Source of the DNA: an uncultured Bacilli bacterium
Lineage (GTDB): Bacteria; Bacillota_I; Bacilli_A; RF39; UBA660
Assembly: GCA_947629205.1 (NCBI GenBank)
Contig: CANRCV010000002.1
Coordinates: 5,958-69,957, forward strand
Direction of reading: 5' to 3'
DNA length: 64,000 nt
Part shown: piece by piece, positions 2,633 through 52,916 of the stretch
How positions within the stretch are numbered: the stretch's first letter is position 1
How the letters are laid out: each line of letters starts with the position of its first letter
Made by a program: the position numbers and the translations under genes
The notes under the pieces: model-generated
The model's database searches: none
Told to the model about the DNA's origin: nothing
The model's input: only the letters and a program-made list of their open reading frames with translations

Positions 2633-4516
2633 TTGGAAAGAAAATATAAAAAATATTTAGTTATAGTAGGATTATTAATTGTTTTAGGGGCCATTACGGG
2701 AGTTAGTTATTCTTGGTGGACATCTACTGCAGAACAAACAGGAGTAAATCAAATTCAAAGTGATTGTTTAAAAATATCTTATACAGATGAAAACCCTATA
2801 AAATTAGATACAACGTATCCTTTAACAGATAAAGAAGGAGAGGCCTTAACTCCTTATACATTTACTATACAAAATACTTGTTCTAACGCTATAGATTATA
2901 CTATAAATTTAGGTATAAGTGATAGTAATACTTTAAATGATGAATATGTTGCTGTCAAGTTAAATGATAATACCAAAAGAATATTAAATAGTTTAGAAAA
3001 AGCTAATATAAAAAACTATACTAAATCTTATGAACTAGCAAAAGGAATATTAAATGGAAATGATTCAAAAGAATATAGTTTAAGACTATGGATGGATGAA
3101 CATGTAACAGTAAGTGATGATACAACAAATAAAACATTTGGAAGTAAAGTCGTAGTAGAAGCAACATTAAATACACTAGCAAAAGTATATACAGATGATA
3201 CATTAAATGGAGCAGATCCAGTAATAAAAGATAATTTAATACCAGTAAAAATAGATAAAGACAATGGAACAGTAAAAAAAGCAAATATAGAAGAAGAATG
3301 GTATGATTATTCTAAGAAAGAGTGGGCAAATGCTGTTATATTAAAAGACAATGGTACTATAGAAGAAGATGGAACTATCAAAGAAGAGAGTATAGAAAGT
3401 TATTTTGTATGGATACCAAAATATAAATATAAAATCTTTGATATGGGAAATTATGAAACACTTGAAACAGTAGTTGAAGATAAAGGAGCAAATACACCAA
3501 TAGAAATTGAATTTGGAATCTATGATACAGTAGATAACACAATAGAGTGTACTACACCACCAAGTGGTGAAAATGGTTCATGTGCAATAGATAAATGGAT
3601 GACACCATCAGCATTTACTGCATTTGGTACAAACGGATTTTGGGTAGGTAAATTTGAAACTGGATATGATGGAGTAACAAGTGCAACAGAAGCTATGCAA
3701 CACAATGAATTGGCAGCAGAAAAAGTTATTATCAAACCCAATGTATATAGTTGGAGAAACATAACAGTTAAAAATATGTTTGATACAAGTTATGCTTATC
3801 AAAGAGAATTAGATAGTCATATGATGAAGAATACCGAATGGGGTGCAGTAGCATACTTACAACATAGTAAATATGGTAGTGGAGAAAGTGTAAGAATCAA
3901 TAATAATTTTGGATATGTAACAGGCTATGCAGCTTTGAATGAACCAACGATTGGATATACTGGAACAAATGAAAAAGAAAATATATATGAAACCCCAAGC
4001 GGATTAGGGCAAGATGGAACATACACAATAAATTACACAAATCCAAAAAGTAAAGTAGCAAGTACAACAGGAAATTATACAGGCATTTATGATATGTCAG
4101 GTGGAGCTTGGGAATATGTAATGGGAGTAATGAAAGGAACAAATAACATTGACTTTACTTTTGGTCAAAGTGGATTTGATACTGGTTTGTTTCCATTTAA
4201 TAATCAAGAAGGTAGTTCTAAATACTATGATATTTATAAATATGGAGCTGATATGACCAATTGGGGAAGAAGAATACTAGGAGATGCAACAGGAGAGATG
4301 GGACCATTTGGAAATAAAAAATATGGTAATCAAACAAGAACAATTTCTTCTTGGCATGATGATGTTGCATACTTTATTAATAACATTTCTCCTTGGTTTC
4401 TTCGTAGTGGTGCTTCCTATAATGGCATTGATACTGGTGTTTTTGCATACACCTTAACCTCTGGTAGCACAACTGAAACAACGAGTTTCCGTATTGTCCT
4501 TTCTCCACAAAACTAA
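2633..4516 (+). CDS. membrane-anchored protein with C-terminal FGE-sulfatase/SUMF1-like (C-type-lectin fold) domain, paralog P1
   Basis: TTG start; N-terminal TM helix. Motifs KNTEWGAVAYL, GNYTGIYDMSGGAWEYVMG and FRIVLSP resemble the FGE-sulfatase signatures (EWEYAAR / GNVWEWV / GFR). Confidence 0.7.
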   Translation: MERKYKKYLVIVGLLIVLGAITGVSYSWWTSTAEQTGVNQIQSDCLKISYTDENPIKLDTTYPLTDKEGEALTPYTFTIQNTCSNAIDYTINLGISDSNTLNDEYVAVKLNDNTKRILNSLEKANIKNYTKSYELAKGILNGNDSKEYSLRLWMDEHVTVSDDTTNKTFGSKVVVEATLNTLAKVYTDDTLNGADPVIKDNLIPVKIDKDNGTVKKANIEEEWYDYSKKEWANAVILKDNGTIEEDGTIKEESIESYFVWIPKYKYKIFDMGNYETLETVVEDKGANTPIEIEFGIYDTVDNTIECTTPPSGENGSCAIDKWMTPSAFTAFGTNGFWVGKFETGYDGVTSATEAMQHNELAAEKVIIKPNVYSWRNITVKNMFDTSYAYQRELDSHMMKNTEWGAVAYLQHSKYGSGESVRINNNFGYVTGYAALNEPTIGYTGTNEKENIYETPSGLGQDGTYTINYTNPKSKVASTTGNYTGIYDMSGGAWEYVMGVMKGTNNIDFTFGQSGFDTGLFPFNNQEGSSKYYDIYKYGADMTNWGRRILGDATGEMGPFGNKKYGNQTRTISSWHDDVAYFINNISPWFLRSGASYNGIDTGVFAYTLTSGSTTETTSFRIVLSPQN

Positions 4517-4531
4517 AAAAGAGGTGTATAT

Positions 4532-6439
4532 ATGAATTTAGAAGATAAAAATGTAAAGAAAAAAATAATGATTGGTATAGGTATAGCTTTTGTAATATTA
4601 GTGGTAGTAGGAACTAGTTTAGCATTATGGTCATTTAATACCAAACAAACAAGTATAAATGAATTAAATAGTTCATGTTTAAAAATAAGTTTAAAAGATG
4701 AAAATGATGCTATTACTTTAGAAAAAGCTCATCCAATAACAAATGATGAAGGAGAAGCTTTAACACCTTATACATTTACTATTCAAAACACTTGTACAAC
4801 AAGTATTTCCTATAATGTTAATTTAGGAATTACAGAAAATTCAACTCTAAATGCTAAATATATAGCAGTAAAATTAGGGGAAGATGAAAAGAAAATTTTA
4901 AATGCATTTACTCCAGCTACATTAGATAATTATAGTGAAGCATATACACTTAAAACAGGAACATTAAGTGGAAAAGATTCAATTACTTATGATTTAAGAT
5001 TATGGATGGATGAAACCACAGAAGGTGAAGAATCCATGAATAAAACCTTTGAAAGTAAGATAGTAATAAGTGCTAGTTTAAATGAATTAGCAGTACTATA
5101 TAAAGAAGATTTATTAAATGGTGCAGATCCAGTATTAGATGAAGAGGGAAAATTAATTCCTGTTACAATAAGTGAAGATAATGGGAAAGTCACCAAAGCC
5201 GATTTAGATACAGAATGGTATAACTATGAAGATCAAAAGTGGGCGAATGCTGTTATTTTAACTGAAAGTGGGAAAAATAAAAATTATAAAGAATTTGATG
5301 AAATCTTAGAAGAAGATATCGAAAGTTATTTTGTATGGATACCAAAGTATCGATATCAAATATTTGATTTAGGAAAATATACAGATGCAAATGGATCATT
5401 AAATGAGAATGCAGCTCAAACAATAGAAATAGAATTTGGACTTACTGATACACAAGATGATGAAAGTAAAAAAGAATGTGCAACACCAAATAAAAGTGGA
5501 GCAGATGGACAATGTGATGTAGGTGATTGGATGACGCATCCAGCCTTCACAGCGTTTGAAGGTTCAAAAGGAATGTGGGTAGGTAAATTTGAAACGGGAT
5601 ATGATGGAGCAACAAGTACAACAGAAGCTGAGCAACATAATGAAATAGCAGAAGATAAAGTAATTATAAAGCCCAATGCATATAGTTGGACAAACATAAC
5701 AATAAAAAATATGTTTGATACAAGTTATGCTTATCAAAGAGAATTAGATAGCCATATGATGAAGAATACAGAATGGGGAGCAGTAGCTTACCTGCAACAT
5801 AGTAAATATGGTAGTGGTGAAAGTGTAAGAATTAATAATAATGGGAACTGTGTAACAGGGTATGCTGCGAAAACTGAACCAACTGTTGGATTTACTTCAT
5901 ATACCGACTATGAAAGACCAAGTGAATTAGGAAAAGACGGAACAAATACAGTAAACTATACAAATCCAGAAAGTAGGGTAGCAAGTACAACTGGAAATTA
6001 CACTGGAGTATACGATATGTCTGGTGGTTGTTGGGAATATGTCATGGGTGTAATAAAAGGATCAAATGGTAGTGGATTTACATTCGGTTCAAGTGGATTT
6101 AGTACCACAACTTTTCCTTTTAAAACTGGAGAAGAAAAATCACAATATTATGATGTTTATGATTATGGTACAAGTGAAGGAACTTACAATCGAAGAATTT
6201 TAGGAGATGCCATAGGAGAGATGGGTCCATTTGGACGAAAGATTTTCGGTTCTCAATCGAGAAGACTCACCTCTTGGTATGACGATGAGGCCTGGTTTGC
6301 TTATTCTACCTACCCTTGGTTCACTCGTGGTGGCGATTTCAACCTTGGTTCTGGCTCTGGTGTCTTTAACTTCCGTCGTCTCAATGGAGGAGTGAACGTC
6401 GGCCATGGTTTCCGTATCGTTCTTGCTCCAACTAAATAA
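4532..6439 (+). CDS. FGE-sulfatase-like domain membrane-anchored protein, paralog P2
   Basis: Same architecture as P1 (TM, N-domain CLKISL…, central YFVWIPKYRYQIFD block, C-terminal GNYTGVYDMSGGCWEYVMG…GFRIVLAP); RBS AGAGGTG. Confidence 0.7.
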   Translation: MNLEDKNVKKKIMIGIGIAFVILVVVGTSLALWSFNTKQTSINELNSSCLKISLKDENDAITLEKAHPITNDEGEALTPYTFTIQNTCTTSISYNVNLGITENSTLNAKYIAVKLGEDEKKILNAFTPATLDNYSEAYTLKTGTLSGKDSITYDLRLWMDETTEGEESMNKTFESKIVISASLNELAVLYKEDLLNGADPVLDEEGKLIPVTISEDNGKVTKADLDTEWYNYEDQKWANAVILTESGKNKNYKEFDEILEEDIESYFVWIPKYRYQIFDLGKYTDANGSLNENAAQTIEIEFGLTDTQDDESKKECATPNKSGADGQCDVGDWMTHPAFTAFEGSKGMWVGKFETGYDGATSTTEAEQHNEIAEDKVIIKPNAYSWTNITIKNMFDTSYAYQRELDSHMMKNTEWGAVAYLQHSKYGSGESVRINNNGNCVTGYAAKTEPTVGFTSYTDYERPSELGKDGTNTVNYTNPESRVASTTGNYTGVYDMSGGCWEYVMGVIKGSNGSGFTFGSSGFSTTTFPFKTGEEKSQYYDVYDYGTSEGTYNRRILGDAIGEMGPFGRKIFGSQSRRLTSWYDDEAWFAYSTYPWFTRGGDFNLGSGSGVFNFRRLNGGVNVGHGFRIVLAPTK

Positions 6440-6456: not shown

Positions 6457-7920
6457 ATGAAATTACAAAAGTTTATTAAAAATAAAAAGCAAAAACAAAT
6501 TTTAATTGGTGCAATTATAGGAATTATTGTACTAATTGGTGGTATAACTTTATACCGTACTTTTGCTTTGTATAAAGAAGAAAAAACTTTTGATATATTA
6601 CAAGGTCAAGTGCCTGATTTTAGTGGTATTTATAAAGAAAAACTACTAAATGGAGCATATCCAGTATTAGATGAAGAGGGAAAGTTAATACCAGTTATTA
6701 TAGGGAACAATGGAAAAGTAACAAAAGCTAGTCTAAACTCTAAATGGTATAAATATGGAGATAAACAGTGGGCAAATGCAGTGATTTTAAAAGAAGGAGT
6801 AGAAACTCCAGAAGATAATGCAGAAATAGATGAAAGTAACATTGAAAGTTATTTTGTATGGATACCAAAGTATCGATACAAAATCTTTGATTTAGGAGAC
6901 ACTTATACAGGATTAGCTACTGTTCAATCTGGTAAAGCACAACAAATAGAAATAGAATTTGGACTTACTGATACACAAGATGAAAAAGAAAACGAATGTG
7001 TAGCACCAGAAAGTGGATCGAATGGTGAATGTAAAAAAGATTATTGGATGACACATCCAGCATTCACAACATTTGGTACCAATGGTTTTTGGGTAGGTAA
7101 ATTTGAAAGTAGTAATGCTGGTAATAAAGTTCAAATAAAACCAAATGTGGTGAGTTGGAAAAGTATAAATATAAAAACTATGTTTGATACAAGTTATAAT
7201 TATCAAAGAAACTTAGATAGCCATATGTTAAAAAATACGGAATGGGGAGCAGTTGCATATCTATCCCATTCAAAATATGGAACTTGTAATAATAATCAAT
7301 GTACTGAAGTAAGACTTAATAATAATAGTGGTTATGTAACAGGATATGCAGCAAAGACAGAACCAACAACTGGATATAATGCTTACAATAGTTATGAAAA
7401 TAAAACACCAACACAAGATGGAAATAGTACAATAAATTATACGAATTCATTAAGTCAAGTTGCAAGTACAACTGGAAATTACACTGGAGTATATGACATG
7501 AGTGGAGGAGCTTGGGAATATGTGATGGGTGTAATGAAAAATGCAAATAATAATGGTCTATCACTTAGTTCAAGTGGATTTACTTTAAATGATATTCCAT
7601 TTAAAACTGATGAAGAAATAGATTATTCAAAATATTATGATGCTTATGAGTATAGTTCAGTTTACACAACTTATAATAAAAGAATTCTAGGAGACGCAAC
7701 AGGAGAATTAGGACCATTTGAGCAAAAAAGATATAATAATTCAACAAGAATAATTTCCTCTTGGTACGATGATGAATCCTATTATCTTTATAGACCTTGG
7801 GCGGTTCGTGGTGGTGTTTTCTCTTATGGTATTGGTTCAGGGATATTTGCTTTTGATCAAAATGAAGGTGTTGGACTAGAACTTGTAACTTTCCGTGTAG
7901 CTCTTGCTCCAACTAATTAA
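6457..7920 (+). CDS. FGE-sulfatase-like domain membrane-anchored protein, paralog P3 (lacks N-domain of P1/P2)
   Basis: N-terminus MKLQKFIKNKKQKQILIG… shared with P4 and P5; C-terminal GNYTGVYDMSGGAWEYVMG…FRVALAP. Confidence 0.7.
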   Translation: MKLQKFIKNKKQKQILIGAIIGIIVLIGGITLYRTFALYKEEKTFDILQGQVPDFSGIYKEKLLNGAYPVLDEEGKLIPVIIGNNGKVTKASLNSKWYKYGDKQWANAVILKEGVETPEDNAEIDESNIESYFVWIPKYRYKIFDLGDTYTGLATVQSGKAQQIEIEFGLTDTQDEKENECVAPESGSNGECKKDYWMTHPAFTTFGTNGFWVGKFESSNAGNKVQIKPNVVSWKSINIKTMFDTSYNYQRNLDSHMLKNTEWGAVAYLSHSKYGTCNNNQCTEVRLNNNSGYVTGYAAKTEPTTGYNAYNSYENKTPTQDGNSTINYTNSLSQVASTTGNYTGVYDMSGGAWEYVMGVMKNANNNGLSLSSSGFTLNDIPFKTDEEIDYSKYYDAYEYSSVYTTYNKRILGDATGELGPFEQKRYNNSTRIISSWYDDESYYLYRPWAVRGGVFSYGIGSGIFAFDQNEGVGLELVTFRVALAPTN

Positions 7921-7978
7921 AAAGAATTAAGAACAATCTGTTCTTGAAAAAATATATAAACTATAATATAATCAAAAC

Positions 7979-8049: not shown

Positions 8050-8183
8050 ATATTGATTGAAATAAAACATTATGATAAAAACGCTTTTATAGTTGTAAAT
8101 GAAAAAAACGTTCAAAATGGGTTTATCAAACAATCGTTTTCTCTATTGTAAAGAATAAATAAGAAAAAGGAAGAAAATTGATT

Positions 8184-9017
8184 TTAATTTTCTTCTTTTT
8201 TGATATTTTCAATTTGATTAAGAGTTAAACCAGTATATTTAGTGATTAAATCTATATCTAAATGATCTTCAAGCATCTTTTTAGCTGTTTCTTTTTTTGC
8301 TTTTTGTCTACCTATTTCTTCAAAACCACAATTATCAAGATATTCTTTGTCATAGTATAACCATTGATTTAGAAATGCTTGATAGTTATCAATTTTATCA
8401 TTTACCTTCTTCATCATTTCACTCTCCCCATAAACCTTTTCTCTGGCTTTCTTGTCTTCACATACAAAGATATACAAAAGCCATCGTAAATCCCTTTCAT
8501 TTAACTTTTCAATTTCATTATAATCGATTTCATTTAATAAATCTATATTTATATCAAAGATTTCGATATTTTTGTTACGAATCATATGATATTTTGTATC
8601 CATTATAATACTATGATAGATAAATTCACCTTTGTTAAAGATATCATAGTTATTAAGGTTTATTTGAATAATCGGTTTGATTTTGGGATAGTTTTCTCCG
8701 GGTTTGATTTGAGTTAAATAAAGTTGTGCTATATAACCTGTATTTTTAGTTTGTAACTCTAAACTATTATTATAATTAATCTCAATATTTACAATATGTT
8801 CATTAGTAGAATACACAGCATCTGCTTCTTGCTTCTTTATGCTTTCGTTGATATTGATTTCATCATTTAAAAGTTTTAGATTGTTTACGACATAGTCTTT
8901 TGATAAATCTAAAACAGAAGCAATGATACTTGCAACATACTCCTTACAATCTTCTTCCTTTAATAATTTTTTCGCATACTCATCTTTTAAGAATTTAACT
9001 TCTTTCGTTTTTGTCAT
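8184..9017 (-). CDS. Rpn-family / PD-(D/E)XK nuclease family putative transposase
   Basis: EADAVYSTNEHIVNIEINYNN (D…E.x core), YIAQLYLTQIKPGENYPKIKPIIQINLNNYDIF, C-terminal TGLTLNQIENIKKE helix typical of the family. Confidence 0.6.
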   Translation of the reverse strand: MTKTKEVKFLKDEYAKKLLKEEDCKEYVASIIASVLDLSKDYVVNNLKLLNDEININESIKKQEADAVYSTNEHIVNIEINYNNSLELQTKNTGYIAQLYLTQIKPGENYPKIKPIIQINLNNYDIFNKGEFIYHSIIMDTKYHMIRNKNIEIFDINIDLLNEIDYNEIEKLNERDLRWLLYIFVCEDKKAREKVYGESEMMKKVNDKIDNYQAFLNQWLYYDKEYLDNCGFEEIGRQKAKKETAKKMLEDHLDIDLITKYTGLTLNQIENIKKEEN

Positions 9018-12206: not shown

Positions 12207-12536
12207 CTATTTCGTTCTTGTTTCTTTTTGACTTGCTAAGATTTGTTCTAGTCTTTTCAGTTCATGTTGATAAAATAAATATTTTTCTTTTTGGAGTTCT
12301 TTTGATGTAGTTGATAAAGTCTCTTTATATAGATCAATCATTTCTTTTATATTATCATTTTCATGTTGAATAGACTTTTTTTTCATTTCTTCAATTTCTT
12401 CTTCAATTGCTGTATTTTTTAATCTTTCCAGTTCACTTTTGTATAACGCTTTTTTATCACTATCTTGTTCTTGTTTTATAGCTTCTTCATAGTAAGCAAT
12501 AATGGTTTGTATATCCATATTTTCATCTTTTTTCAT
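12207..12536 (-). CDS. coiled-coil hypothetical protein (109 aa)
   Basis: Start moved to the internal ATG (MKKDENMDIQ…), because the longer ORF overlaps the nifJ start and promoter; E/K-rich heptad-like sequence. Confidence 0.4.
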   Translation of the reverse strand: MKKDENMDIQTIIAYYEEAIKQEQDSDKKALYKSELERLKNTAIEEEIEEMKKKSIQHENDNIKEMIDLYKETLSTTSKELQKEKYLFYQHELKRLEQILASQKETRTK

Positions 12537-19741: not shown

Positions 19742-19797
19742 ACTTCTCAAAGATTTTAAAAAATGATATAATGAAGGTAACATCGGGAGGCAAATAT

Positions 19798-22257
19798 ATG
19801 AAAAAACAAACAGAAAATCATATACCAAAAAAAAGAACATATATTAGTTTATTCAGTGGTGCCGGTGTTGGATGTTATGGATTTAAAGAACAAAATTTTG
19901 AATGTATTGCAACATGTGAATTAATGGAATCAAGAATGCAAATTCAAAAATACAATCAAAAATGTAAATACAGTAGTGGTTACATTTGTGGAGATATACA
20001 AGAAGATGAAATTAAAAACAAAATTTTTGCTGAAATTGAAAAATGGAAGACGAAGGAGTTCATTTTAGATGTCGACGTTTTACTGGCAACGCCTCCTTGC
20101 CAAGGAATGTCCACAGCGAATTATAAAAAAAATAATGAACAAAAAAGAAATTCATTAGTAGTGGAAGCTATTAAAATGATCAAAGAAATAAATCCAAAAA
20201 TTTTTGTATTTGAAAATGTTCGAGCTTTTGTAAAAACTATATGTACAGATATGGATGGAATAGATAAACCAATATTAGATGCTATTTTATCTAATTTAAA
20301 TGAAACCTATAATATATCGTATAAAATTATAAACTTTAAAGACTATGGAGTTCCTTCTAGTAGACCTAGAACTTTGGTGATTGGGACCAGAAAAGATTTA
20401 GTAAATCTTTCTCCTTTTAATTTGTTTCCTTTTAAAGAAAAAGAAATAAGTTTAAAAGAAGCTATTGGAAATTTAAAACCTTTAGAAGATTTTGATGCTT
20501 TTGATGAAGAAGATATCTATCATTCTTTTAGAAACTATGATGCTTACATGCGTGAATGGATTCATGATTTAAAAGAGGGTCAAACCGCTTTTGATAATCC
20601 GGAAGAAAAAAAACCTTATAAAATGGTTCATGGTAAAAAAGTCATTTTAAAATCAGAACATCTAGGAAATAAATTTAGAAGATTGGTTTGGGATAAACCA
20701 TGTGCTTGTGTGACAACAAGAAATGATCAATTGGCCAGTATGGATACTCTTCATCCAAGAGACGATCGCGTTTTATCTATTCGAGAATTAATGTGCGTTA
20801 TGACGATACCGAAAACGTTTAAATGGTGTTGTGAAGATACAAGAAAAATAATTACGAAAGAACAAAGAGAAGCTTTTTCTAAAAAAAATGAACTAACAAT
20901 TAGAAGATGTATTGGAGAGGCTGTTCCTACTCGAATTATGGAAAAAATAGCCATAAATATAAAGGATATGTTAGAATATAATGACTTTATTAATGCATCT
21001 GGAAAGTTAGAAAATTATAATAAAAATAATTATTATATAGCTTCCTATCTTTTTGAAAAATCCGTTTCAAATCATAAAGAATCTGGTTCCTTTTATACAC
21101 CACAATCCATTATATTTGATTGTTTAAAGAAATTACAAAACTTAAATTTAAAAAAAATACGCGTTTTAGAGCCTTCCGTTGGAGGAGGAAACTTTGTTTT
21201 GCCTCTTATAAATGCCATTGATCATATTGGAAAAATTGAACTTGATTTAGTAGATAGTAATCCCGATGCTATTAAAGAACTAAAAAAGAAAATCAAAAAA
21301 TATAAAATTGATTCAACAAAAATTAAAATTCATTACTATGTAGAAGATTTTATAGAACATGATATGTCTTTGGGATATGATATTGTCATTGGGAATCCTC
21401 CTTATTTTAAACTAAAAGCTCAAGAATTAGAAAAATATAGAGGTAAGGTGGATGTATCCAGTGGAAATATCTATGGTTTGTTTCTTGAAAAAATTTATTC
21501 CCATGCCGAGAATATCATTATGGTATTACCTAAAAATTTTTTAATGGTTCCGGAATTAGATACACTTAGAAAAAAGTATGAGTCTTATGATATTGTTTCC
21601 TTAATCGATTATGGAGTAGATGGATTTAAAGATGTATTTATTGAAATTATTTCTATTCATTTTCAAAAAAATTATAAGGATAAAATCTATATTGAAAATA
21701 AAAGGGATAAGACAATTTCTTATGTTGATCAAAAATATATTTTTCATGATAAAATGTGGTTAATTTATAGAAATGCATTTTTTGATGAGTATATAAAAAA
21801 GTTTGAACTTGATTATTTTGATTTTTATAGAGATAGACAAATAACGAATAAGTATTTAAAGAAAAAAGGAAAATATCAAGTATTAAGATCTAAAAATATT
21901 ACAGATACTGGAAAAATTATTAGTATTCCCAATTATGATCGATTTATAGATGATCCAAAACCCTTTTTATTTTCTAAATATTTAAATAAGGATGCAATTA
22001 TATTTCCTAATTTTACTTATAATATTCGCGCTACAAAATTACCTAAAAATACTTTGGCTAATGGATCTATTGTAGTTGCTTATCCTAAAAATGGTCAAGA
22101 TATTGAAAAAATAAATACAGAGGTATACTCGACGAAAGCGTTTAGAGAATATTATAGTATTGTTAAGAATAAATCTAGATTTACGATTAATATTGATCGA
22201 AATACTATGTATTATATTGGAAAATTAAAGGAGGATGAACATGTATACGATTTATGA
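19798..22257 (+). CDS. fused DNA methyltransferase: N-terminal C5-cytosine MTase + C-terminal N6-adenine (gamma-class) MTase
   Basis: m5C motifs FSGAGVG, PPCQGMS, FENV, SRPRT, GEAVP. Then m6A motifs FYTPQSI, VLEPSVGGGNF, GNPPYF. Start placed after the GGGAGG RBS. Confidence 0.8.
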   Translation: MKKQTENHIPKKRTYISLFSGAGVGCYGFKEQNFECIATCELMESRMQIQKYNQKCKYSSGYICGDIQEDEIKNKIFAEIEKWKTKEFILDVDVLLATPPCQGMSTANYKKNNEQKRNSLVVEAIKMIKEINPKIFVFENVRAFVKTICTDMDGIDKPILDAILSNLNETYNISYKIINFKDYGVPSSRPRTLVIGTRKDLVNLSPFNLFPFKEKEISLKEAIGNLKPLEDFDAFDEEDIYHSFRNYDAYMREWIHDLKEGQTAFDNPEEKKPYKMVHGKKVILKSEHLGNKFRRLVWDKPCACVTTRNDQLASMDTLHPRDDRVLSIRELMCVMTIPKTFKWCCEDTRKIITKEQREAFSKKNELTIRRCIGEAVPTRIMEKIAINIKDMLEYNDFINASGKLENYNKNNYYIASYLFEKSVSNHKESGSFYTPQSIIFDCLKKLQNLNLKKIRVLEPSVGGGNFVLPLINAIDHIGKIELDLVDSNPDAIKELKKKIKKYKIDSTKIKIHYYVEDFIEHDMSLGYDIVIGNPPYFKLKAQELEKYRGKVDVSSGNIYGLFLEKIYSHAENIIMVLPKNFLMVPELDTLRKKYESYDIVSLIDYGVDGFKDVFIEIISIHFQKNYKDKIYIENKRDKTISYVDQKYIFHDKMWLIYRNAFFDEYIKKFELDYFDFYRDRQITNKYLKKKGKYQVLRSKNITDTGKIISIPNYDRFIDDPKPFLFSKYLNKDAIIFPNFTYNIRATKLPKNTLANGSIVVAYPKNGQDIEKINTEVYSTKAFREYYSIVKNKSRFTINIDRNTMYYIGKLKEDEHVYDL

Positions 22258-23524
22258 AGATTTTCAAAATGTGAGTTATACCAAAGCTAAATTTTTATCA
22301 GACAAATCTTATGCATATGATACGGTATTCTTTGTTTCTAAATTTATAATGAAATTTCAAAAAAATGGTTTATTCGATTTAAAACAAAACATGGAACTTT
22401 TTAATAAATATATCATTGATATGTTTAATAGGAATCCTGCATCAAAGGGAACAAGCAATTATTATTTAGAGGTTTTAAATTTATTAGAATATGCTAATGT
22501 TTTAGAAAAAATAGATCATCATATGTATCAAATTAAGAATTGGGAAGCTTTACGATTTATTAATGAAAGAATGGAAAATGCTTATATCTTTAATTATTTA
22601 GTAACATATCATACTTTTAAAAATGATGGATTATTAGATATTTATAAAAAAATATGTACTACAGATAGTTTAAAAGAAAAAGAAAAATGGATACAAGAAT
22701 TAAATGCTAAAATATCCGTTATCAATGTCAGTGTACAAACACCAGGAACGGTTTGGGAAAAATTAAATACCAAATATGCATTAACGGTATTAAATTTTAT
22801 TAATAAACAAAATTATGTTTCTAGAGAGTTACATGTTCAAAAAGAAATTGCAGATATTGAAAGTATTTCTGTAAATGTTAAAGGAACTAAAACGTATGAT
22901 AATTTACCCAAAAGTAATAATTATTTAAAAAAATTTGATCTTTCTTATGTCAAAGATTTTTTAAAAGATTATTTGTTTATAAAAGAAGAAGAACCTGAAA
23001 CGAGTATTTCTAAAGATGATGTGATTGAAATTAATGAAATGACAAACTTAAAATTAGATTTACTGGATTTACAAAAAGATATAAAGGAAAAGAATACTGA
23101 ATTTACCGGGGAACAATATGTTGAAAATGTGGTACGTTCAAGAAATGCTGGAGCGCAAAGAAGATTTCGAAATAATTTATTTAAACATACAGAAGCAAAG
23201 TGTGCTATTTGTGGATTATCCATTCCAGAACTTTTAATTTCAAGTCATATAAAACCTTATTCCAAGTGTGAAGAGATTTATGATGCGGTGAATTATGAAA
23301 ATGGATTATTAATGTGTCCCATGCATGATGCTCTATTTGAATCGGCAAAATATATAACCATTGATGCAAAAGATGGAACTATAAAAGTCAAAAAGCAATA
23401 TGCACCATTTATGAAAAGCTTCAATTTAACTCCAAAAACCAAAATGGATGCCTCTTTATTAACAGCAGAAAGAAAACATTATTTAGAGTGGCATAATCAA
23501 CAATTTGAAAAGACAAATAAATAG
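22241..23524 (+). CDS. HNH-family restriction endonuclease candidate
   Basis: C-terminal CAICG…SSHIKPYS…NGLLMCPMHDALFE (HNH_2-type motif); translationally coupled to the methyltransferase. Confidence 0.65.
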   Translation: MYTIYEDFQNVSYTKAKFLSDKSYAYDTVFFVSKFIMKFQKNGLFDLKQNMELFNKYIIDMFNRNPASKGTSNYYLEVLNLLEYANVLEKIDHHMYQIKNWEALRFINERMENAYIFNYLVTYHTFKNDGLLDIYKKICTTDSLKEKEKWIQELNAKISVINVSVQTPGTVWEKLNTKYALTVLNFINKQNYVSRELHVQKEIADIESISVNVKGTKTYDNLPKSNNYLKKFDLSYVKDFLKDYLFIKEEEPETSISKDDVIEINEMTNLKLDLLDLQKDIKEKNTEFTGEQYVENVVRSRNAGAQRRFRNNLFKHTEAKCAICGLSIPELLISSHIKPYSKCEEIYDAVNYENGLLMCPMHDALFESAKYITIDAKDGTIKVKKQYAPFMKSFNLTPKTKMDASLLTAERKHYLEWHNQQFEKTNK

Positions 23525-37322: not shown

Positions 37323-37347
37323 ATAAGTAGTAATAGAGGTGGGTCCT

Positions 37348-40300
37348 ATGGGAAAAGAAAGAATTTTAAAAATCATTAGTATGAGTATAACCCTATTTTT
37401 AATAGGGTTTTTATGGCCTTTACAAGCCATTGGGGAAGAAACAATCCCTTATATCAGTAGTAAAAATGCTCCGGTTTTTTATGGAACAAGTGAAATTACT
37501 GTTCCAATAGGAACAGAAATTGATATAGAACATGATGCTCGTTTTCGTCTTTTTGCTAGAGATAATGAAGATGAAGATTTAACACAAGATATTCAAATTA
37601 CCAAAAATACAATTGACTATGAAGAAGATTCTAAAAAAGCCAAAAAAGGAGAATATGAAATTGACTATCAAGTAACGGATAGTGATAACAATACAACAAC
37701 CATGCAAGTTTTGGTACATGTTACAGATACACAAGAAATAAAACTGGAAAAAACCATGTATACGCTACCTTCTGTAGAACATTTAAATACATTAGGTTAT
37801 ACGAGAGGAAATAATCATGATCGTCAAATTATGGGAGTCTTTTTAGATGTTGATGGTGCAGTTGAAATGCGTAAAACAAGTGGTAGTAGTAATGTTTCCT
37901 TAACGGTAACGCTTCATAATAATGATGATCGTTTTGAAAATACTATTAAAGTTGAAAACGTCTATGATAAAAATGGTGATGAGGGTTGGACAACAATTCA
38001 AAATCCCCTTAAAATGGAATCTTTAAGTACATATAATGAAAAAGAAAATAAATCTTTAAGTGAAGAAGAATTTAAAAAACGTTTTGTTTCTACACCAACC
38101 GTAAAAACTTTATTTCAAAATAACGAAAAAGAAAAAGTAGTTTATGAAATTAAATGGAGTGCAAGTGATGCGAAAGTAAAACCTCTTCATTACTATCATC
38201 AAAACGATGGAGAAGCGTATCAAACGCAATTTTTTAAAGAATGGAGAGAAGATACCGATAGTTATGCCATTATAGATGGTTGGTCCGCTATGGCTTTAGT
38301 TCCTTATTTAGATAATCATCGTTTAATTGCTAGTGATGTAGAAAATAACGCATCTAACCATCATTTATTTAATACTTTAGATGAATGGTGTGCATTTTGG
38401 GATACTTTAACTAAAGAGTATGATGAATTAATTGGTTTATCTTATACACCAAATGAAGAATGGAATCAAAATGTAAAGACTAAATTTTATATTCGTGCTA
38501 ATGATAATGGACCAGGTTCTGCTTATTATGCTTATCTTGATTGTATTGGTAGAAATGATATGTCTGTTTACTCTTTATTTGGTATTTGGTGGGGAAATTT
38601 ACATGAAGCTGGACATGGATACCAAGGTAATGTTGGAGCTAGTGGTTATGGACTTCCTATCACTGAGGTAGCTGTTAATATCTTTAGTTACTATATTCAA
38701 ACCCATCATTGGGATGATATTTATAAATTTGGATCAAAAGATGAATGGTTAAGTAAAGCCAAAAAAGAAGAAGAATACAATACCAGTAGAAAAGAACATT
38801 TAGGTTACCAAGACAATGGGAATGGTAATATTGGAGCAGCAGCTATGTTGTATTCTCTTGTAAATATATTAGATTACTTTAATGATGGAGAAAAGGATGG
38901 CTATAAAGAAGCCTATGCCGCTATTAACCAATATTATCGTCAAGTTTATTTTGAAACCAATAAAAAAATAAATACACAAGATGCTTGGGTTCTTGCTTTA
39001 GAAGAGAAATATCATGTTAATTTAGTTCCTTATTTTGAATCATGGGGTGTTAAAATTTCTCAAGATGTAAAAGATACAGTAATGCAAAGTGATGCTAAAG
39101 TCATTTATTATATGGCAGATATGATTCAAGATGATGAAAAAGAACAAAAAATTAAAACAGAGTTAAACAATATTGGAACTTATGACTTAGCAAGTACAGA
39201 AGAATTAGCTTCTATGCAATTAACAGGAAATGTAACTTTAAACTTTCATATTGATGATTTTGATGCTATAAAAGGAAAAACCGTATATATTTATGATGGA
39301 GATAAAATGGTAAAACAATTGGAAATTACAAGTCCAACCATTACTAGTACTTTACCAGTAGGAACGTATAAAGTAGCTTTACCAAAAACACAAGAAGCCT
39401 TAAATTTTGAACATTTTTATCTAACGGTTGTTTATAATCAAAATACGGAAAAAGAGATTTATTATACAAAAATAGATGATTTTGGAGAAGGTTTTCATAC
39501 TACCATTCAAACACGTGGATATCATGGTGAAAACTATCTTCCATTCGTTATTACTTTAGATGGGAGAAATATAAATATTGCTTATAGAGGAACTTGGATT
39601 AAGAATAATGGAGTTTCAGCCGATCAAGTTTTTTCTACTATTTCTATTTATAATACTTTAGGAGAACAAGTTTATACCAAAAGTGTCAATGGAGGAGGAC
39701 AATCTACTTGGATTAATGTAGGAAATGCAACGGAAACGACAAAAGTTGATTTAGGATATAAATTAAAAATTATGTATAAAGGAGATAAAAATGATTTTTC
39801 CTTTATCAATGGTTTAACAAATAAAAAAGAAAATTGGTCTTCTTATTTTGATGATAAGAATGAAATTGTTTTTGATGTAACTAAATATGGTTTAGTTCCT
39901 GAACAACTTGCTAGTCATGAAGAAGAATTAGAAACTGTGTATAAAACTTCTTTAGATCAATATATTCTTAATTTCTTAGAAGAACATCAAAATGATGATT
40001 TATTAAACCTATTTGCTAATCCAAGTAATTACAATCATATAAGTAGTTTAATTCATAAACTATCTGTACAAAATCAAGATGAATATCAAAATATATTAAA
40101 AGAATTATCAACAGGAGATTTCCCTATCGTTTCATTACCAAAAAATGAATATACTTTTGTAGAAAATGAAATGAATTTAGAAGAATTTAAAAAAGAAATT
40201 ACGATTAGGGATACTGAAGATGGTCTAATTTCTATCAATAGTAATAAGGTTCAATTAAATTCGAATGTTGATTGGAATCATGCGGGAACGTATAGTATAA

Positions 40301-40701
40301 ATATTATTGTAACAGATCAACATCAAAATGTAGTTACAAAAACAGTTAAAATTACGATTACGAAAAAAGAAATACTACCTACACCAACTGAGAATAAAGA
40401 AGAAAGAAATACAACAGAAACGAATAAAAATACATCTTTATCTGTTTCCACAAATCAAGTTGTAACAAAAAATTCTACAGCAGCAAAAGAAGAAATAAAT
40501 GAAACAGAGAAGCAAGAAAATACTCAAAAACAAGAAGAAACAAACGAACAAAAAGAAAATCAAACTCTTTTAGAAGAAAATCAAAATACGACGAATCAAA
40601 AGAAAAAGAATTTGGGGATTATTATTGTAGCTTTAGCAATATTAGGTATCATCTTGTTCATTTCTATCAAACATAAAAAAGCTGGAAAAGAGGTACTTTA
40701 G
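37348..40701 (+). CDS. M60-like (enhancin-type) metallopeptidase, surface protein with C-terminal TM anchor
   Basis: WWGNLHEAGHGYQG zinc motif; signal peptide; Ig-like modules; N/E/K/T-rich stalk + TM. Confidence 0.7.
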   Translation: MGKERILKIISMSITLFLIGFLWPLQAIGEETIPYISSKNAPVFYGTSEITVPIGTEIDIEHDARFRLFARDNEDEDLTQDIQITKNTIDYEEDSKKAKKGEYEIDYQVTDSDNNTTTMQVLVHVTDTQEIKLEKTMYTLPSVEHLNTLGYTRGNNHDRQIMGVFLDVDGAVEMRKTSGSSNVSLTVTLHNNDDRFENTIKVENVYDKNGDEGWTTIQNPLKMESLSTYNEKENKSLSEEEFKKRFVSTPTVKTLFQNNEKEKVVYEIKWSASDAKVKPLHYYHQNDGEAYQTQFFKEWREDTDSYAIIDGWSAMALVPYLDNHRLIASDVENNASNHHLFNTLDEWCAFWDTLTKEYDELIGLSYTPNEEWNQNVKTKFYIRANDNGPGSAYYAYLDCIGRNDMSVYSLFGIWWGNLHEAGHGYQGNVGASGYGLPITEVAVNIFSYYIQTHHWDDIYKFGSKDEWLSKAKKEEEYNTSRKEHLGYQDNGNGNIGAAAMLYSLVNILDYFNDGEKDGYKEAYAAINQYYRQVYFETNKKINTQDAWVLALEEKYHVNLVPYFESWGVKISQDVKDTVMQSDAKVIYYMADMIQDDEKEQKIKTELNNIGTYDLASTEELASMQLTGNVTLNFHIDDFDAIKGKTVYIYDGDKMVKQLEITSPTITSTLPVGTYKVALPKTQEALNFEHFYLTVVYNQNTEKEIYYTKIDDFGEGFHTTIQTRGYHGENYLPFVITLDGRNINIAYRGTWIKNNGVSADQVFSTISIYNTLGEQVYTKSVNGGGQSTWINVGNATETTKVDLGYKLKIMYKGDKNDFSFINGLTNKKENWSSYFDDKNEIVFDVTKYGLVPEQLASHEEELETVYKTSLDQYILNFLEEHQNDDLLNLFANPSNYNHISSLIHKLSVQNQDEYQNILKELSTGDFPIVSLPKNEYTFVENEMNLEEFKKEITIRDTEDGLISINSNKVQLNSNVDWNHAGTYSINIIVTDQHQNVVTKTVKITITKKEILPTPTENKEERNTTETNKNTSLSVSTNQVVTKNSTAAKEEINETEKQENTQKQEETNEQKENQTLLEENQNTTNQKKKNLGIIIVALAILGIILFISIKHKKAGKEVL

Positions 40702-51413: not shown

Positions 51414-52916
51414 ATGAAACTACAAAAATTTATTAAAAATAAGAAACAAAAACAAATTTTAATTGGAACAATTATAGGAATTGTAGTACTTATTGGTGGT
51501 ATTACACTATATCATACTTTTGCTATGTATAAAGAAGAAAAAACTTATAATGTTATAAAAGGAAAAGTACCAGATTTTAGAAATTGTTTAACATTAGGAG
51601 GAGCAACACCAGTTATAAAAGAAGGATTAGTACCAGTAACAATAAGCAATCAAGGAGTAGTTACCAAAGTAAATGAACAATCAAAAGACTGGTATAACTA
51701 TTGTGATAAAGAGTGGGCGAATGCTGTTATCTTAAAAGAAGGAGTAAAAACTCCAGAAGATAATGAAGAAATAAATGAAAATGATATAGAAAGTTATTTT
51801 GTATGGATACCAAAGTATCGATACAAAATATTCAATATGGAAAAATATACAGATGCAAATGGATCATTAAATGAGAATGCAGCTCAAACAATAGAAATAG
51901 AATTTGGAATTACTGATACACAAGATGGAAAAGAAAATGAATGTACAACACCAAATAAAAGTGGAGCAGATGGGAATTGTCATAAAGATTACTGGATGAC
52001 ACATCCAGCATTCACAGCATTTAAAGATTCAAAAGGAATGTGGGTAGGAAAGTTTGAAACGGGATATAAAGATGCAACAAGTACAACAGAAGCCGAACAA
52101 CATAATGAAATAGCAACAAATAAAGTTATTATTAAACCGAATGTGTATAGTTGGAGAAAGATAACAGTAAAAAATATGTTTGACACCAGTTATAATTATC
52201 AAAGAAACTTAGATAGTCATATGATGAAAAATACGGAGTGGGGAGCAGTAGCTTACTTACAACATAGTAAATATGGTAGTGGAGAAAGTGTAAGAATCAA
52301 TAATAATAGTGCATATGTAACTGGATATGCAGCCAAAGAAGAACCTACGACTGGAAGTGGTTCTTACAATAATTATGAAACTCCAACTGGGGGGTTAGGT
52401 ACTGATGGAACATATACAATAAATTACAAAAATCCAGCAAGTCAAGTTGCAAGTACCACAAATAATTATACTGGAATATATGATATGAGTGGTGGATCAT
52501 GGGAATATGTTATGGGAGTAATAAAAGGAGAAAGTGATAGTGGTTATACATTTGGTTCAAGTGGATTTAGTACTAGTACTTTCCCTTTTAAAACTGGAGA
52601 AGAAAAATCACAATATTACGATGTTTATGATTATAATACAAGTGAAACAACTTATAATAGAAGAATTTTAGGGGATGCTACAGGGGAGATGGGGCCATTT
52701 GGGCAAAAACAATATAGTTCACAAACAAGAAATATTTCCTCTTGGTATGATGATGAGGCTTGGTTTGCTGTATCAACTGGCCCTTGGTTCTATCGTGGTG
52801 GACCTTTTAATCGTGGTACGGGCTCTGGTATCTATGCATTAACTCGTCCCACTGGTGGAGTGGATGTCTATGGTGGTTTCCGTATCGTTCTTGCTCCAAC
52901 GAATGAGAACGAGTAA
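51414..52916 (+). CDS. FGE-sulfatase-like domain membrane-anchored protein, paralog P4
   Basis: Same N-terminus as P3/P5, same C-terminal motifs (NNYTGIYDMSGGSWEYVMG…GFRIVLAP). Confidence 0.7.
   Translation: MKLQKFIKNKKQKQILIGTIIGIVVLIGGITLYHTFAMYKEEKTYNVIKGKVPDFRNCLTLGGATPVIKEGLVPVTISNQGVVTKVNEQSKDWYNYCDKEWANAVILKEGVKTPEDNEEINENDIESYFVWIPKYRYKIFNMEKYTDANGSLNENAAQTIEIEFGITDTQDGKENECTTPNKSGADGNCHKDYWMTHPAFTAFKDSKGMWVGKFETGYKDATSTTEAEQHNEIATNKVIIKPNVYSWRKITVKNMFDTSYNYQRNLDSHMMKNTEWGAVAYLQHSKYGSGESVRINNNSAYVTGYAAKEEPTTGSGSYNNYETPTGGLGTDGTYTINYKNPASQVASTTNNYTGIYDMSGGSWEYVMGVIKGESDSGYTFGSSGFSTSTFPFKTGEEKSQYYDVYDYNTSETTYNRRILGDATGEMGPFGQKQYSSQTRNISSWYDDEAWFAVSTGPWFYRGGPFNRGTGSGIYALTRPTGGVDVYGGFRIVLAPTNENE

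Follow-up and report, generated by a model that had tools for sequence, protein, structure and literature searches.

The adenine-poor 3' tails of four paralogous genes, P1 to P4, in the DNA analysed here are best explained as DGR variable regions (VRs) by descent, most likely persisting in this genome as orphaned copies, and to this explanation as a whole a probability of roughly 0.85 is assigned. Descent from VRs is in itself highly probable, judged from sequence: the tails are homologous to segments that in related gut bacteria are demonstrable VRs, accompanied by a template repeat (TR) and by genes for a MutS-like protein, bAvd and a reverse transcriptase (RT), and it is on this homology that the reading of the initial annotation, which had seen in the tails a signature like that of a DGR variable region, can be upheld. 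The stretch analysed (hereafter the window) is 64 kb of a 76.7-kb source contig, from a genome that probably exceeds 1 Mb, the chromosome of a related metagenome-assembled genome (MAG) being 1.31 Mb. The features referred to below are as follows.

2633..4516, + strand: P1, a 627-aa membrane-anchored paralog (ORF list and translation)
4367..4507, + strand: P1 tail, DGR variable region homologue (nhmmer VR/TR profile, 92 bits; codon alignment to proven VR/TR pairs)
4532..6439, + strand: P2, a 635-aa paralog containing the region flagged by the initial annotation
6290..6430, + strand: P2 tail, DGR variable region homologue (12% A, 52% G+C)
6406..6432, + strand: 27-nt 3' end of the P2 tail, TGGTTTCCGTATCGTTCTTGCTCCAAC, identical in pairwise alignment to 52874-52900 in P4
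6457..7920, + strand: P3, a 487-aa paralog without the N-terminal beta-sandwich domain
about 7777..7911, + strand: P3 tail, DGR variable region homologue (profile match; two-codon deletion upstream of the PW motif)
7927..7947, + strand: hairpin about 17 nt past the P3 tail (folding of post-VR sequences)
51414..52916, + strand: P4, a dispersed paralog of 500 aa, separated by 45 kb from the P1-P3 cluster
52758..52898, + strand: P4 tail, DGR variable region homologue (profile match; codon alignment)

P1 consists of an N-terminal transmembrane (TM) helix, a beta-sandwich domain and a C-terminal C-type lectin (CLec)-type domain, and belongs to a family which on database searching was found to number more than 6600 proteins. 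P4 (entry P0005) is 74% identical to P2; in the databases P2 has no relative closer than 58-60% identity, and genome and metagenome collections hold no closer locus. Look-ups by exact protein found no record of P0001, P0002, P0003 or the PNPase of the window. In all four paralogs the stop codon lies 6-18 nt past the end of the tail. The start of the P2 tail had been placed at 6235, which is about 55 nt too far 5' by comparison with the homology to proven VR/TR pairs, beginning at 6290.

The gene bodies of the paralogs contain 41.5-43% A, and the tails 22-23% in P1, 12-13% in P2, 19-20% in P3 and 13-14% in P4, the figure for P2 depending on the span chosen (19% over 6235-6436, 13% over 6287-6430); the P2 tail has a G+C content of 48-52%, compared with 27% in the window as a whole. 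The two 141-nt segments of the + strand that are lowest in A in the entire 64 kb are 6289-6429 (12.1%) and 52757-52897 (12.8%), and the P3 tail is among the ten lowest. The remaining low-A segments are membrane-protein genes with 45-59% T, compared with 36-40% T in the tails. The bodies have an AT skew of +0.19 to +0.25 and the tails one of -0.27 to -0.50, the shift in composition being A-specific. Over the last 117 nt, 70 of the 117 columns vary among the four tails; the other 47 are invariant and comprise 20 T, 16 G, 10 C and a single A. These counts bear out the abrupt A-poor, G+C-rich 3' tail that had been described for all four paralogs and also the A-free scaffold said to be conserved between them, 46 of the 47 invariant columns being non-A.

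Arginine is encoded by CGT at 12 of 13 positions in the tails and at 1 of 35 in the bodies; GGA supplies 5 of 30 glycines in the tails and 110 of 179 in the bodies, and TTA 2 of 12 leucines against 76 of 105. At the four-fold degenerate third positions of P1-P4, A makes up 17% in the tails and 61% in the bodies. When the tail peptides were redrawn 5000 times with the body codon usage of the paralogs, none of the 5000 redraws was as poor in A as the observed tails (z = -5.9 to -9.0), and the same procedure with window-wide codon usage gave z = -2.5 to -5.1. Because the redraws stay above the observed A, amino-acid composition fails to explain the switch, and the codon counts and the redraws together confirm that, as had been proposed, the synonymous flip to A-free codons goes beyond any effect of the amino acids.

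An AlphaFold2 model of full-length P2 had a mean pLDDT of 89, and a model of its C-terminal 306 aa had a pLDDT of 85 and a pTM of 0.86. In a fold search the C-terminal model matched TaqVP best (5VF4; E 1.2e-6, probability 1.00) and then Mtd (1YU0-1YU4; E 0.05-0.35), while the FGE structure 6MUJ reached E 2.6 only; the search with the full-length model was dominated by matches to the N-terminal beta-sandwich and left the tail domain uninformed. A profile-sequence search picked out 5VF4 weakly (E 0.27). The Pfam family FGE-sulfatase (PF03781) scored 16.9 bits with P3 (E 0.005), below the cut-off of 23.3, and a Pfam search of P1, P2 and P4 gave no match. The earlier suggestion that the tail lies at the extreme C-terminus of a CLec-type fold is thus in agreement with the model of P2. 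In TaqVP of Thermus aquaticus, Mtd of Bordetella phage BPP-1 and TvpA of Treponema denticola, the VR likewise forms the extreme C-terminal about 45 residues of a CLec/FGE-sulfatase-like domain, and the variable positions are, as in P1-P4, interspersed with scaffold residues (W, G, R and F) that do not vary. The four paralogs differ from these proteins in sequence, the identity being only 11-16% and no Pfam family reaching threshold; in the TM anchor and beta-sandwich N-terminus, which are specific to the gut-Bacilli family; and in having no adjoining TR or RT in the window.

Among about 160 related loci, all from uncultured gut Bacilli, at least 10 carry a TR and then MutS-like, bAvd and RT genes directly behind the homologous gene, the TR lying about 215 nt downstream of the target gene and all the genes being on one strand. 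In locus L030 the VR occupies 1889-2030 and the TR 2245-2386, and the cassette genes behind the TR match MutS_I (E 1.5e-9), bAvd (E 2.8e-21) and RVT_1 (E 3.4e-17); the cassette RT bears the DGR motifs GNYTSQ...YMDD. Mismatches between TR and VR fall exclusively at TR adenines in L030 (16/16), L037 (12/12), L131 (11/11), L146 (13/13) and L155 (14/14), and nearly all of them do so in L137, L139, L149, L152 and L154; such restriction to template adenines is what defines a DGR VR. One identical TR is found in five metagenome contigs (L137, L139, L146, L149 and L152), in which the paired VRs differ at 9-18 A sites, and because identical TRs are paired with differing VRs in five metagenomes, DGR diversification is active in nature. 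The layout of target-VR, TR, MutS_I, bAvd and RT in these relatives is that of the MSL-type cassette ('architecture D'), in which the accessory gene MSL is always accompanied by avd (Wu et al. 2018, Nucleic Acids Res 46:11, PMC5758913). The mechanism by which an MSL/bAvd/RT cassette acts on a CLec variable region is already known.

Across the family, 172 VR-like tails have a mean A content of 18.7%, and A occupies 17% of four-fold third positions in 13 VRs from RT/cassette loci, 23% in 122 cassette-less tails and 58% in gene bodies. Most tails in RT/cassette loci have a hairpin of 5-17 bp within a few nt. At least 90% of the family genes at these 160 loci lack a cassette in cis, and few of them match any available TR. 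At one cassette-less locus the alleles (L001, L163, L164 and L165) are mosaic over the whole C-terminal half, with many non-A changes, a pattern that neither proves nor excludes trans-homing there.

The tails of P1-P4 align with the VR/TR pairs of L030, L037, L131, L154 and L074 codon for codon and without gaps, and a VR/TR profile run with nhmmer scored 83-101 bits against them, a result that is partly circular since the seeds included the same tails. P2 and P4 differ at 50% of the columns that are A in at least three of five family TRs and at 15% of the columns that are never A (p = 2e-4), and all 14 columns that are A in 5/5 TRs vary among P1-P4; ordinary diversifying selection on ligand-contact residues could also cause such faster change at TR-A columns. 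Per 138 nt, A numbers 17-31 in the window tails, 20-23 in proven VRs and 32-37 in TRs, and AAN codons number 1-4, 0-1 and 9-13, respectively. Because both counts are VR-like, the four tails appear to be mutagenised copies rather than templates, P2 and P4 being poorer in A than the proven VRs.

Within the 64-kb window no TR was found for any tail, either by blastn at word size 7 or by nhmmer with the VR/TR profile, the only matches being the four tails themselves; nor was any RT, bAvd or MutS-like/MSL gene found there by tblastn with the L030 proteins or by a scan for RT motifs. All four methods agree with the initial annotation, which had reported no RT, avd gene or template repeat in the window, and in this respect the window, without genes of an MSL-type cassette, is unlike the relatives. 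A degenerate tail pattern (a plain base wherever all four tails agree, 'base or A' at other columns on which P2 and P4 agree, and N at the rest) had 0 matches in viral, genome and metagenome contigs, even the tails of the window being missed; the species is absent from these contigs, so the scan is uninformative on its genome. That one tail might serve as template for another was considered and rejected, all four lying in frame at ORF ends with VR-like A and AAN counts; P2 as the template of P4, or the reverse, was rejected on the ground that the mismatches run both ways.

In the mechanism proposed, the family would consist of membrane-anchored surface proteins, diversified in uncultured gut Bacilli by diversity-generating retroelements (DGRs), and each tail would be the last about 141 nt of the sequence for a ligand-binding domain with the C-type-lectin fold. 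In the cassette-bearing relatives the TR would be transcribed and then copied by the RT, together with bAvd and the MutS-like accessory protein, with misincorporation opposite adenines, and the resulting cDNA would overwrite the VR. Such a process should leave two imprints. The scaffold residues (W, G, R, F, P, L and S) would be held in A-free codons, because any template A would be randomised, and in a genome of 27% G+C this would show as an abrupt switch to NNT/NNC codons; and template AAY codons would be turned into mixed codons, with removal of most of the remaining A. Both imprints are found in P1-P4, in which the composition and the homology to proven VRs are observed directly. The poverty in A had previously been put down to mutagenesis of template adenines, and this stands as one source of it, to which has to be added a second, the A-free scaffold codons, which are present in the template too.

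The abruptness with which G+C rises, over about 50 nt, from a level near 30% to one of 40-52%, might suggest a foreign, G+C-richer segment gained by recombination and having no link to a retroelement, which was the fallback explanation of the initial annotation. The shift is, however, strand-asymmetric and A-specific, with T at 33-40% and an AT skew that falls from +0.2 to a minimum of -0.5, which would not be expected of imported DNA; the boundaries of the tails are those of the VR/TR homology of relatives; the composition is native in the adjoining part of that protein domain; and the identical switch is present in 172 homologous tails across many species. A foreign origin of the tails was accordingly rejected and is effectively refuted by the A-specific, strand-asymmetric nature of the shift. 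Very unlikely, too, is an account that combines constraint on the protein with diversifying selection on the ligand-binding surface, the codon bias having causes unrelated to DGRs, such as translation or mRNA structure. Residues G, W, F, R, S and P, with their low-A codons, are indeed frequent in the tails, and in the species with the homologue P0081 the alleles are mosaic over the whole C-terminal half, which shows that recombination and selection act too; yet the observed A is far below the prediction from the peptides under either codon-usage table, and the homologous segments are proven TR-templated VRs. RNA structure was rejected as the cause, the folding of the tails having z = -0.3 to +1.8 relative to shuffles, and so was an antisense gene: the antisense ORF 7601-7912 is present in the P3 tail only and is a by-product of low A.

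It is somewhat probable that the tails are now orphaned, a target gene having probably been duplicated without its cassette so as to spread copies of the tail; decay looks more advanced in P1 and P3, and P2 and P4 look fresher. A possible but not a probable alternative is that they are still served by one or more remote cassettes, and much the same weight can be given to the particular form of it in which cassettes beyond the 64 kb now rewrite some of the tails, most plausibly those of P2 and P4. This alternative accepts the tails as DGR VRs and departs from the orphan reading solely as to present activity. Remote targets are on record: of 372 DGRs, 45 have a target that is non-adjacent and 10 one more than 100 kb away, and target genes may be several dispersed paralogs in a genome, some of them remote from any RT (PMC5758913). 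The DGR of Treponema denticola, with its seven targets, is a precedent, as are other DGRs whose targets lie more than 100 kb from the RT. P1-P4 resemble these in being several dispersed paralogs in one genome, and L036 and L030 look like such a pair, the L036 VR, on a separate contig of a related MAG, having 14 mismatches to the L030 TR at A and 3 at other bases. The A content of P2 and P4 is the lowest seen (12-13%), and the two share the identical 27-nt 3' end TGGTTTCCGTATCGTTCTTGCTCCAAC, which is located where VR/TR homology ends in the relatives L030 and L037 and which, from this position, is a possible candidate for an IMH-like element. Calculated by hand, one template containing about 42 adenines, together with about 7 drift transitions, would roughly account for the way the P2-P4 columns divide into A/A, A/non-A and non-A/non-A. 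A-free synonymous codons have moreover been retained despite 22-50% divergence at four-fold sites between the paralogs; this A-avoidance, with the low A and the shared end of P2 and P4, would fit continuing DGR constraint. Against this, synonymous divergence is equal in tails and bodies (for P2-P4, for example, 23% and 24% of amino-acid-identical codons), and because of this equality the rewriting of all four tails by one shared template, which would keep scaffold codons identical, is contradicted. Accepted remote targets differ from their TR at A positions only and have a near-identical scaffold, whereas 15-36% of never-A columns differ among the tails of P1-P4 and their synonymous sites are as diverged as those of the bodies. 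A single template for all four would also have to be more than 60% A, given the 70 variable columns in 117, and to accommodate the indel in P3. The scarcity of cassettes in cis and of matches to available TRs among the family genes likewise speaks against active remote targets, as may the lack of any hairpin after P1 or P2 on folding of the post-VR sequences. P4 is followed by a weak one, and the hairpin at 7927..7947 may be either the counterpart of the post-VR hairpin of cassette loci or a terminator for the P1-P3 cluster. Of the four-fold third positions, 11-31% are G or C in the window tails, 40% in cassette VRs and 22% in tails without a cis cassette.

It is rather unlikely that the four tails are all still diversified by unseen cassettes, or that A-free codons are actively maintained in cassette-less paralogs. 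Continued diversification would call for one unusually A-rich template for P2 and P4, or for several diverged templates, and would amount to a multi-target chromosomal DGR network in a gut Bacillus of small genome; active maintenance would make composition by itself the mark of a standing reservoir of VRs open to renewed targeting.

Passages of a study of cyanobacteria (Vallota-Eastman et al. 2020, BMC Genomics 21:664, PMC7517822) describe CLec variable-protein paralogs both in and outside DGR loci, with graded VR/TR homology. These dispersed paralogs, as described there, present the same picture of duplication as the gut-Bacilli family, in a system of another phylum with different N-terminal domains and a different type of cassette. 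The imprint of A-free codons in cassette-less paralogs, conspicuous here at 27% G+C, is not mentioned in those passages.

Descent of the tails from VRs would assign a role, that of DGR-diversified surface binding proteins, to a family of more than 6600 members with no Pfam match and almost no informative names; and since most copies have no adjoining cassette, it raises the question of how these copies divide between live remote targets and relics. Where a genome is very A+T-rich, a DGR VR should be recognisable from the raw sequence by its A-specific dip and A-free synonymous codons, a signal with which DGR targets, past or present, could be screened for independently of any template. The family occurs in uncultured Bacilli from the guts of humans, mice, rabbits and chickens.

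The window is a chromosomal segment of a Firmicute with 27% G+C, in which nusA, infB, rbfA, truB, pnp and recG and a pyruvate:ferredoxin oxidoreductase gene were recognised. It also houses four paralogous genes, whose products each combine a membrane anchor at the N terminus with a large domain at the C terminus; those of P1 and P2 have a beta-sandwich domain in addition:

P1: 2633-4516, plus strand, paralogous gene
P2: 4532-6439, plus strand, paralogous gene
P3: 6457-7920, plus strand, paralogous gene
P4: 51414-52916, plus strand, paralogous gene

Comparison with Pfam gave a single, sub-threshold match for these paralogs, to FGE-sulfatase and for P3 only.

The initial annotation described an abruptly A-depleted tail at the 3' end of each gene, and this is borne out: the A content is 41.5-43% in the gene bodies versus 23% in the P1 tail, 19% in that of P2 (as delimited there, 6235-6436; 13% over 6287-6430), 20% in that of P3 and 14% in that of P4, and the lowest-A 141-nt windows in the entire 64 kb are exactly 6289-6429 (12.1%), followed by 52757-52897 (12.8%). 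The shift is specific to A and is not a general enrichment in G+C; T amounts to 33-40% of the tails, and the AT skew passes from about +0.2 in the bodies to between -0.27 and -0.50. The reported flip in synonymous codon usage is equally clear, CGT accounting for 12 of 13 arginine codons in the tails versus 1 of 35 in the bodies, and GGA for 5 of 30 versus 110 of 179 glycine codons; at four-fold degenerate third positions, A falls from 61% to 17%. Amino-acid composition alone, already judged insufficient in that annotation, is rejected as a cause, none of 5000 draws in which the tail peptides were re-encoded with the paralogs' own codon usage being as A-poor as observed (z = -5.9 to -9.0). The A-free scaffold said to be conserved is also real: just one of the 47 invariant columns in the last 117 nt of the four tails is an A.

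The key to these tails is provided by related gut bacteria. The genes belong to a family that exceeds 6600 proteins; no member bears an informative name, and precomputed Pfam domains are nearly absent. It occurs in uncultured gut 'Bacilli/Tenericutes' metagenome-assembled genomes (MAGs) from humans, rabbits, mice and chickens, a single genome frequently encoding many paralogs. About 160 loci were fetched for comparison. In at least 10, a template repeat (TR) and variable region (VR) pair diagnostic of a diversity-generating retroelement (DGR) is demonstrable directly behind the homologous gene, and several further loci have a reverse transcriptase (RT) gene with or without the remaining cassette genes. 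In locus L030 the last 142 nt of the gene (1889-2030) are repeated at 2245-2386, followed by genes for a MutS_I-domain protein (E 1.5e-9), bAvd (E 2.8e-21) and an RVT_1 protein (E 3.4e-17) bearing GNYTSQ...YMDD; all 16 differences between the copies fall at adenines of the downstream copy. The same holds for L037 (12/12), L131 (11/11), L146 (13/13) and L155 (14/14), and restriction to template adenines is near-exclusive in L137, L139, L149, L152 and L154. Five metagenome contigs share one identical template while their VRs differ at 9-18 adenine sites, so that the system is evidently active in nature. Every cassette of the family has, between TR and bAvd, a conserved protein of about 148 residues:

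MutS domain I gene: L030 2534-2980; also in L037, L068, L110, L124, L131, L137, L154 and L155

It is what Wu et al. 2018 (PMC5758913) call the accessory gene 'MSL', and the cassette corresponds to their MSL-containing 'architecture D'. The sequence AGACTACAATATAA is conserved directly 3' of the template repeat in L030 (2389-2402) and L037 (about 12256-12269), whose TRs are 84% identical, and may be part of a template RNA spacer or priming region.

The window tails align to these VR/TR pairs codon for codon and free of gaps, from just past the conserved SSWY.D motif to FR(I/V)VLAP. Variation among P1-P4 falls in the columns where the family templates have adenine: every one of the 14 columns with A in all five templates is variable, and P2 and P4 mismatch at 50% of template-A columns versus 15% of never-A columns (p = 2e-4). 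With 17-31 A and 1-4 AAN codons, the tails resemble mutagenised copies (20-23 and 0-1 in proven VRs; 32-37 and 9-13 in templates). Their composition is shared by proven VRs, which have about 15% A and 52-54% G+C inside A+T-rich genomes, and by homologous tails across the family (n=172), with a mean of 18.7% A. When the C-terminal 306 residues of P2 were modelled with AlphaFold2 (pLDDT 85, pTM 0.86), the best structural match was the solved DGR variable protein TaqVP (5VF4, E 1.2e-6, probability 1.00), and next Bordetella phage Mtd (E 0.05-0.35). Homology, fold and composition thus support the DGR reading offered initially, and it is highly probable (about 0.9) that the tails are DGR variable regions by descent. 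P1-P4 would be CLec-type DGR variable proteins of an already known kind, whose relatives have the MSL/bAvd/RT cassette.

The signature is proposed to arise, from the known DGR mechanism and the data for window and relatives, as follows. Each template A would be randomised in the target, so that scaffold residues would be held in A-free codons in template and copies alike; against a genome preference for AGA, GGA, TTA, GCA and AGT, this would appear as an abrupt change to CGT, GGT/GGC, CTT, GCT and TCT. The AAY codons of the template, marking the diversified positions, would become mixed codons in the copy, with loss of most of the leftover A. A foreign origin of the tails is rejected: the change is specific to A and asymmetric between the strands, and its limits are those of the VR/TR homology. 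RNA structure is likewise excluded (z = -0.3 to +1.8), as is an antisense gene, since an antisense ORF accompanies P3 only:

7601-7912, minus strand, antisense ORF of 103 aa overlapping the P3 tail

The simplest account of this ORF is the scarcity of A in the tail, which makes stop codons rare in the antisense direction.

The absence of RT, Avd and template repeat from the window, as first reported, was confirmed: blastn (word size 7) and an nhmmer profile detected no fifth tail copy, no ORF has RT motifs, and tblastn of the window with related RT, bAvd and MutS-like protein gave no match. By sequence, then, the window appears to contain nothing able to act on the tails. Degenerate template patterns had no matches in viral, genome or metagenome contigs, collections in which the species is absent and from which the window's own tails were equally unreturned; the nearest database homologue, of P2, is 58-60% identical.

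The main interest of such cassette-less tails lies in whether they still serve as remote targets or persist as fossils in composition only. The four tails are not being rewritten from one common template, and we lean towards their being now orphaned, the target gene having been duplicated and spread without its cassette. This is favoured because synonymous divergence at amino-acid-identical codons is body-like (P2-P4: 23% in tails, 24% in bodies; other pairs similar), variation affects 70 of the last 117 columns, and the P3 tail has a two-codon deletion. The hairpins argue in the same direction: at RT/cassette loci one lies within a few nucleotides 3' of most tails, whereas folding of the post-tail sequence gave none after P1 or P2, a possible terminator about 17 nt from the tail of P3, and a weak one after P4. 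So do the four-fold third positions, with 17% A, 43% T and 40% G+C in 13 VRs of RT/cassette loci, 23% A, 56% T and 22% G+C in 122 tails without a cis cassette, and 58% A in family bodies; the window tails, at 11-31% G+C, fall inside the cassette-less range, and the difference would reflect C/G-to-T decay following cassette loss. Cyanobacteria offer a published parallel, with dispersed CLec paralogs whose VR/TR homology varies in degree (PMC7517822).

A more tentative alternative, to which we give less credence, is that one or more unseen remote cassettes still serve the tails. The P2 and P4 tails have less A than proven VRs and an identical 27-nt 3' end, and A-avoidance has been kept despite substantial synonymous divergence, although that divergence, equal to that of the bodies, runs counter to one common template. 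Distances above 100 kb between a DGR target and its RT are on record (PMC5758913), and in a related MAG the tail of L036, on a different contig from L030, differs from the L030 template by 14 adenine mismatches and 3 others.

Recombination adds to tail variability, since four alleles of one cassette-less family gene from a single species (L001, L163, L164 and L165, 10001-11887) share 97-100% identity in their initial ~900 nt and are mosaic (50-95% identical) throughout the C-terminal half, a further hot spot lying about 450-600 nt 5' of the tail. At 11733-12231 of L036 lies a second family gene of the L030 MAG, with a broken reading frame and, downstream, a degenerate template copy but no RT; it has the look of a duplicate cassette in decay, or of a trans-target. 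The family gene of L068 directly adjoins MSL, bAvd and RT genes while the usual template place is empty, and two to three tail-like segments outside long ORFs (8086-8759), about 2.5-3 kb upstream, have mismatches that are not A-specific.

Both paralog loci are bordered by PD-(D/E)XK_2 genes (Rpn/transposase-like, PF12784), which might be linked to paralog duplication or dispersal:

8184-9017, minus strand, PD-(D/E)XK_2 gene just after P3
49910-50749, plus strand, PD-(D/E)XK_2 gene just before P4

Two products encoded directly upstream of the P1-P3 cluster (1354-2351), a STAS-domain anti-sigma antagonist and a sigma-70-family factor with regions 2, 3 and 4, may regulate these surface proteins. 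At the window edge (107-1140) an ATPase ORF, of which the C-terminal part is present, precedes a gene for an RloB-like protein (PF13707, E 1e-37), in what looks like an OLD/Rlo-type defence gene pair. A probable restriction-modification system at 19771-23524 comprises an 828-aa ORF, which by eye joins a C5-cytosine methyltransferase to a module resembling N6-adenine methyltransferases, and behind it a 429-aa ORF that bears an HNH-like motif. Finally, a 1120-aa cell-surface protein (37339-40701) with the zinc-peptidase motif HEAGHGYQ, M60/enhancin-like by eye, would fit a host-mucus-associated gut organism.
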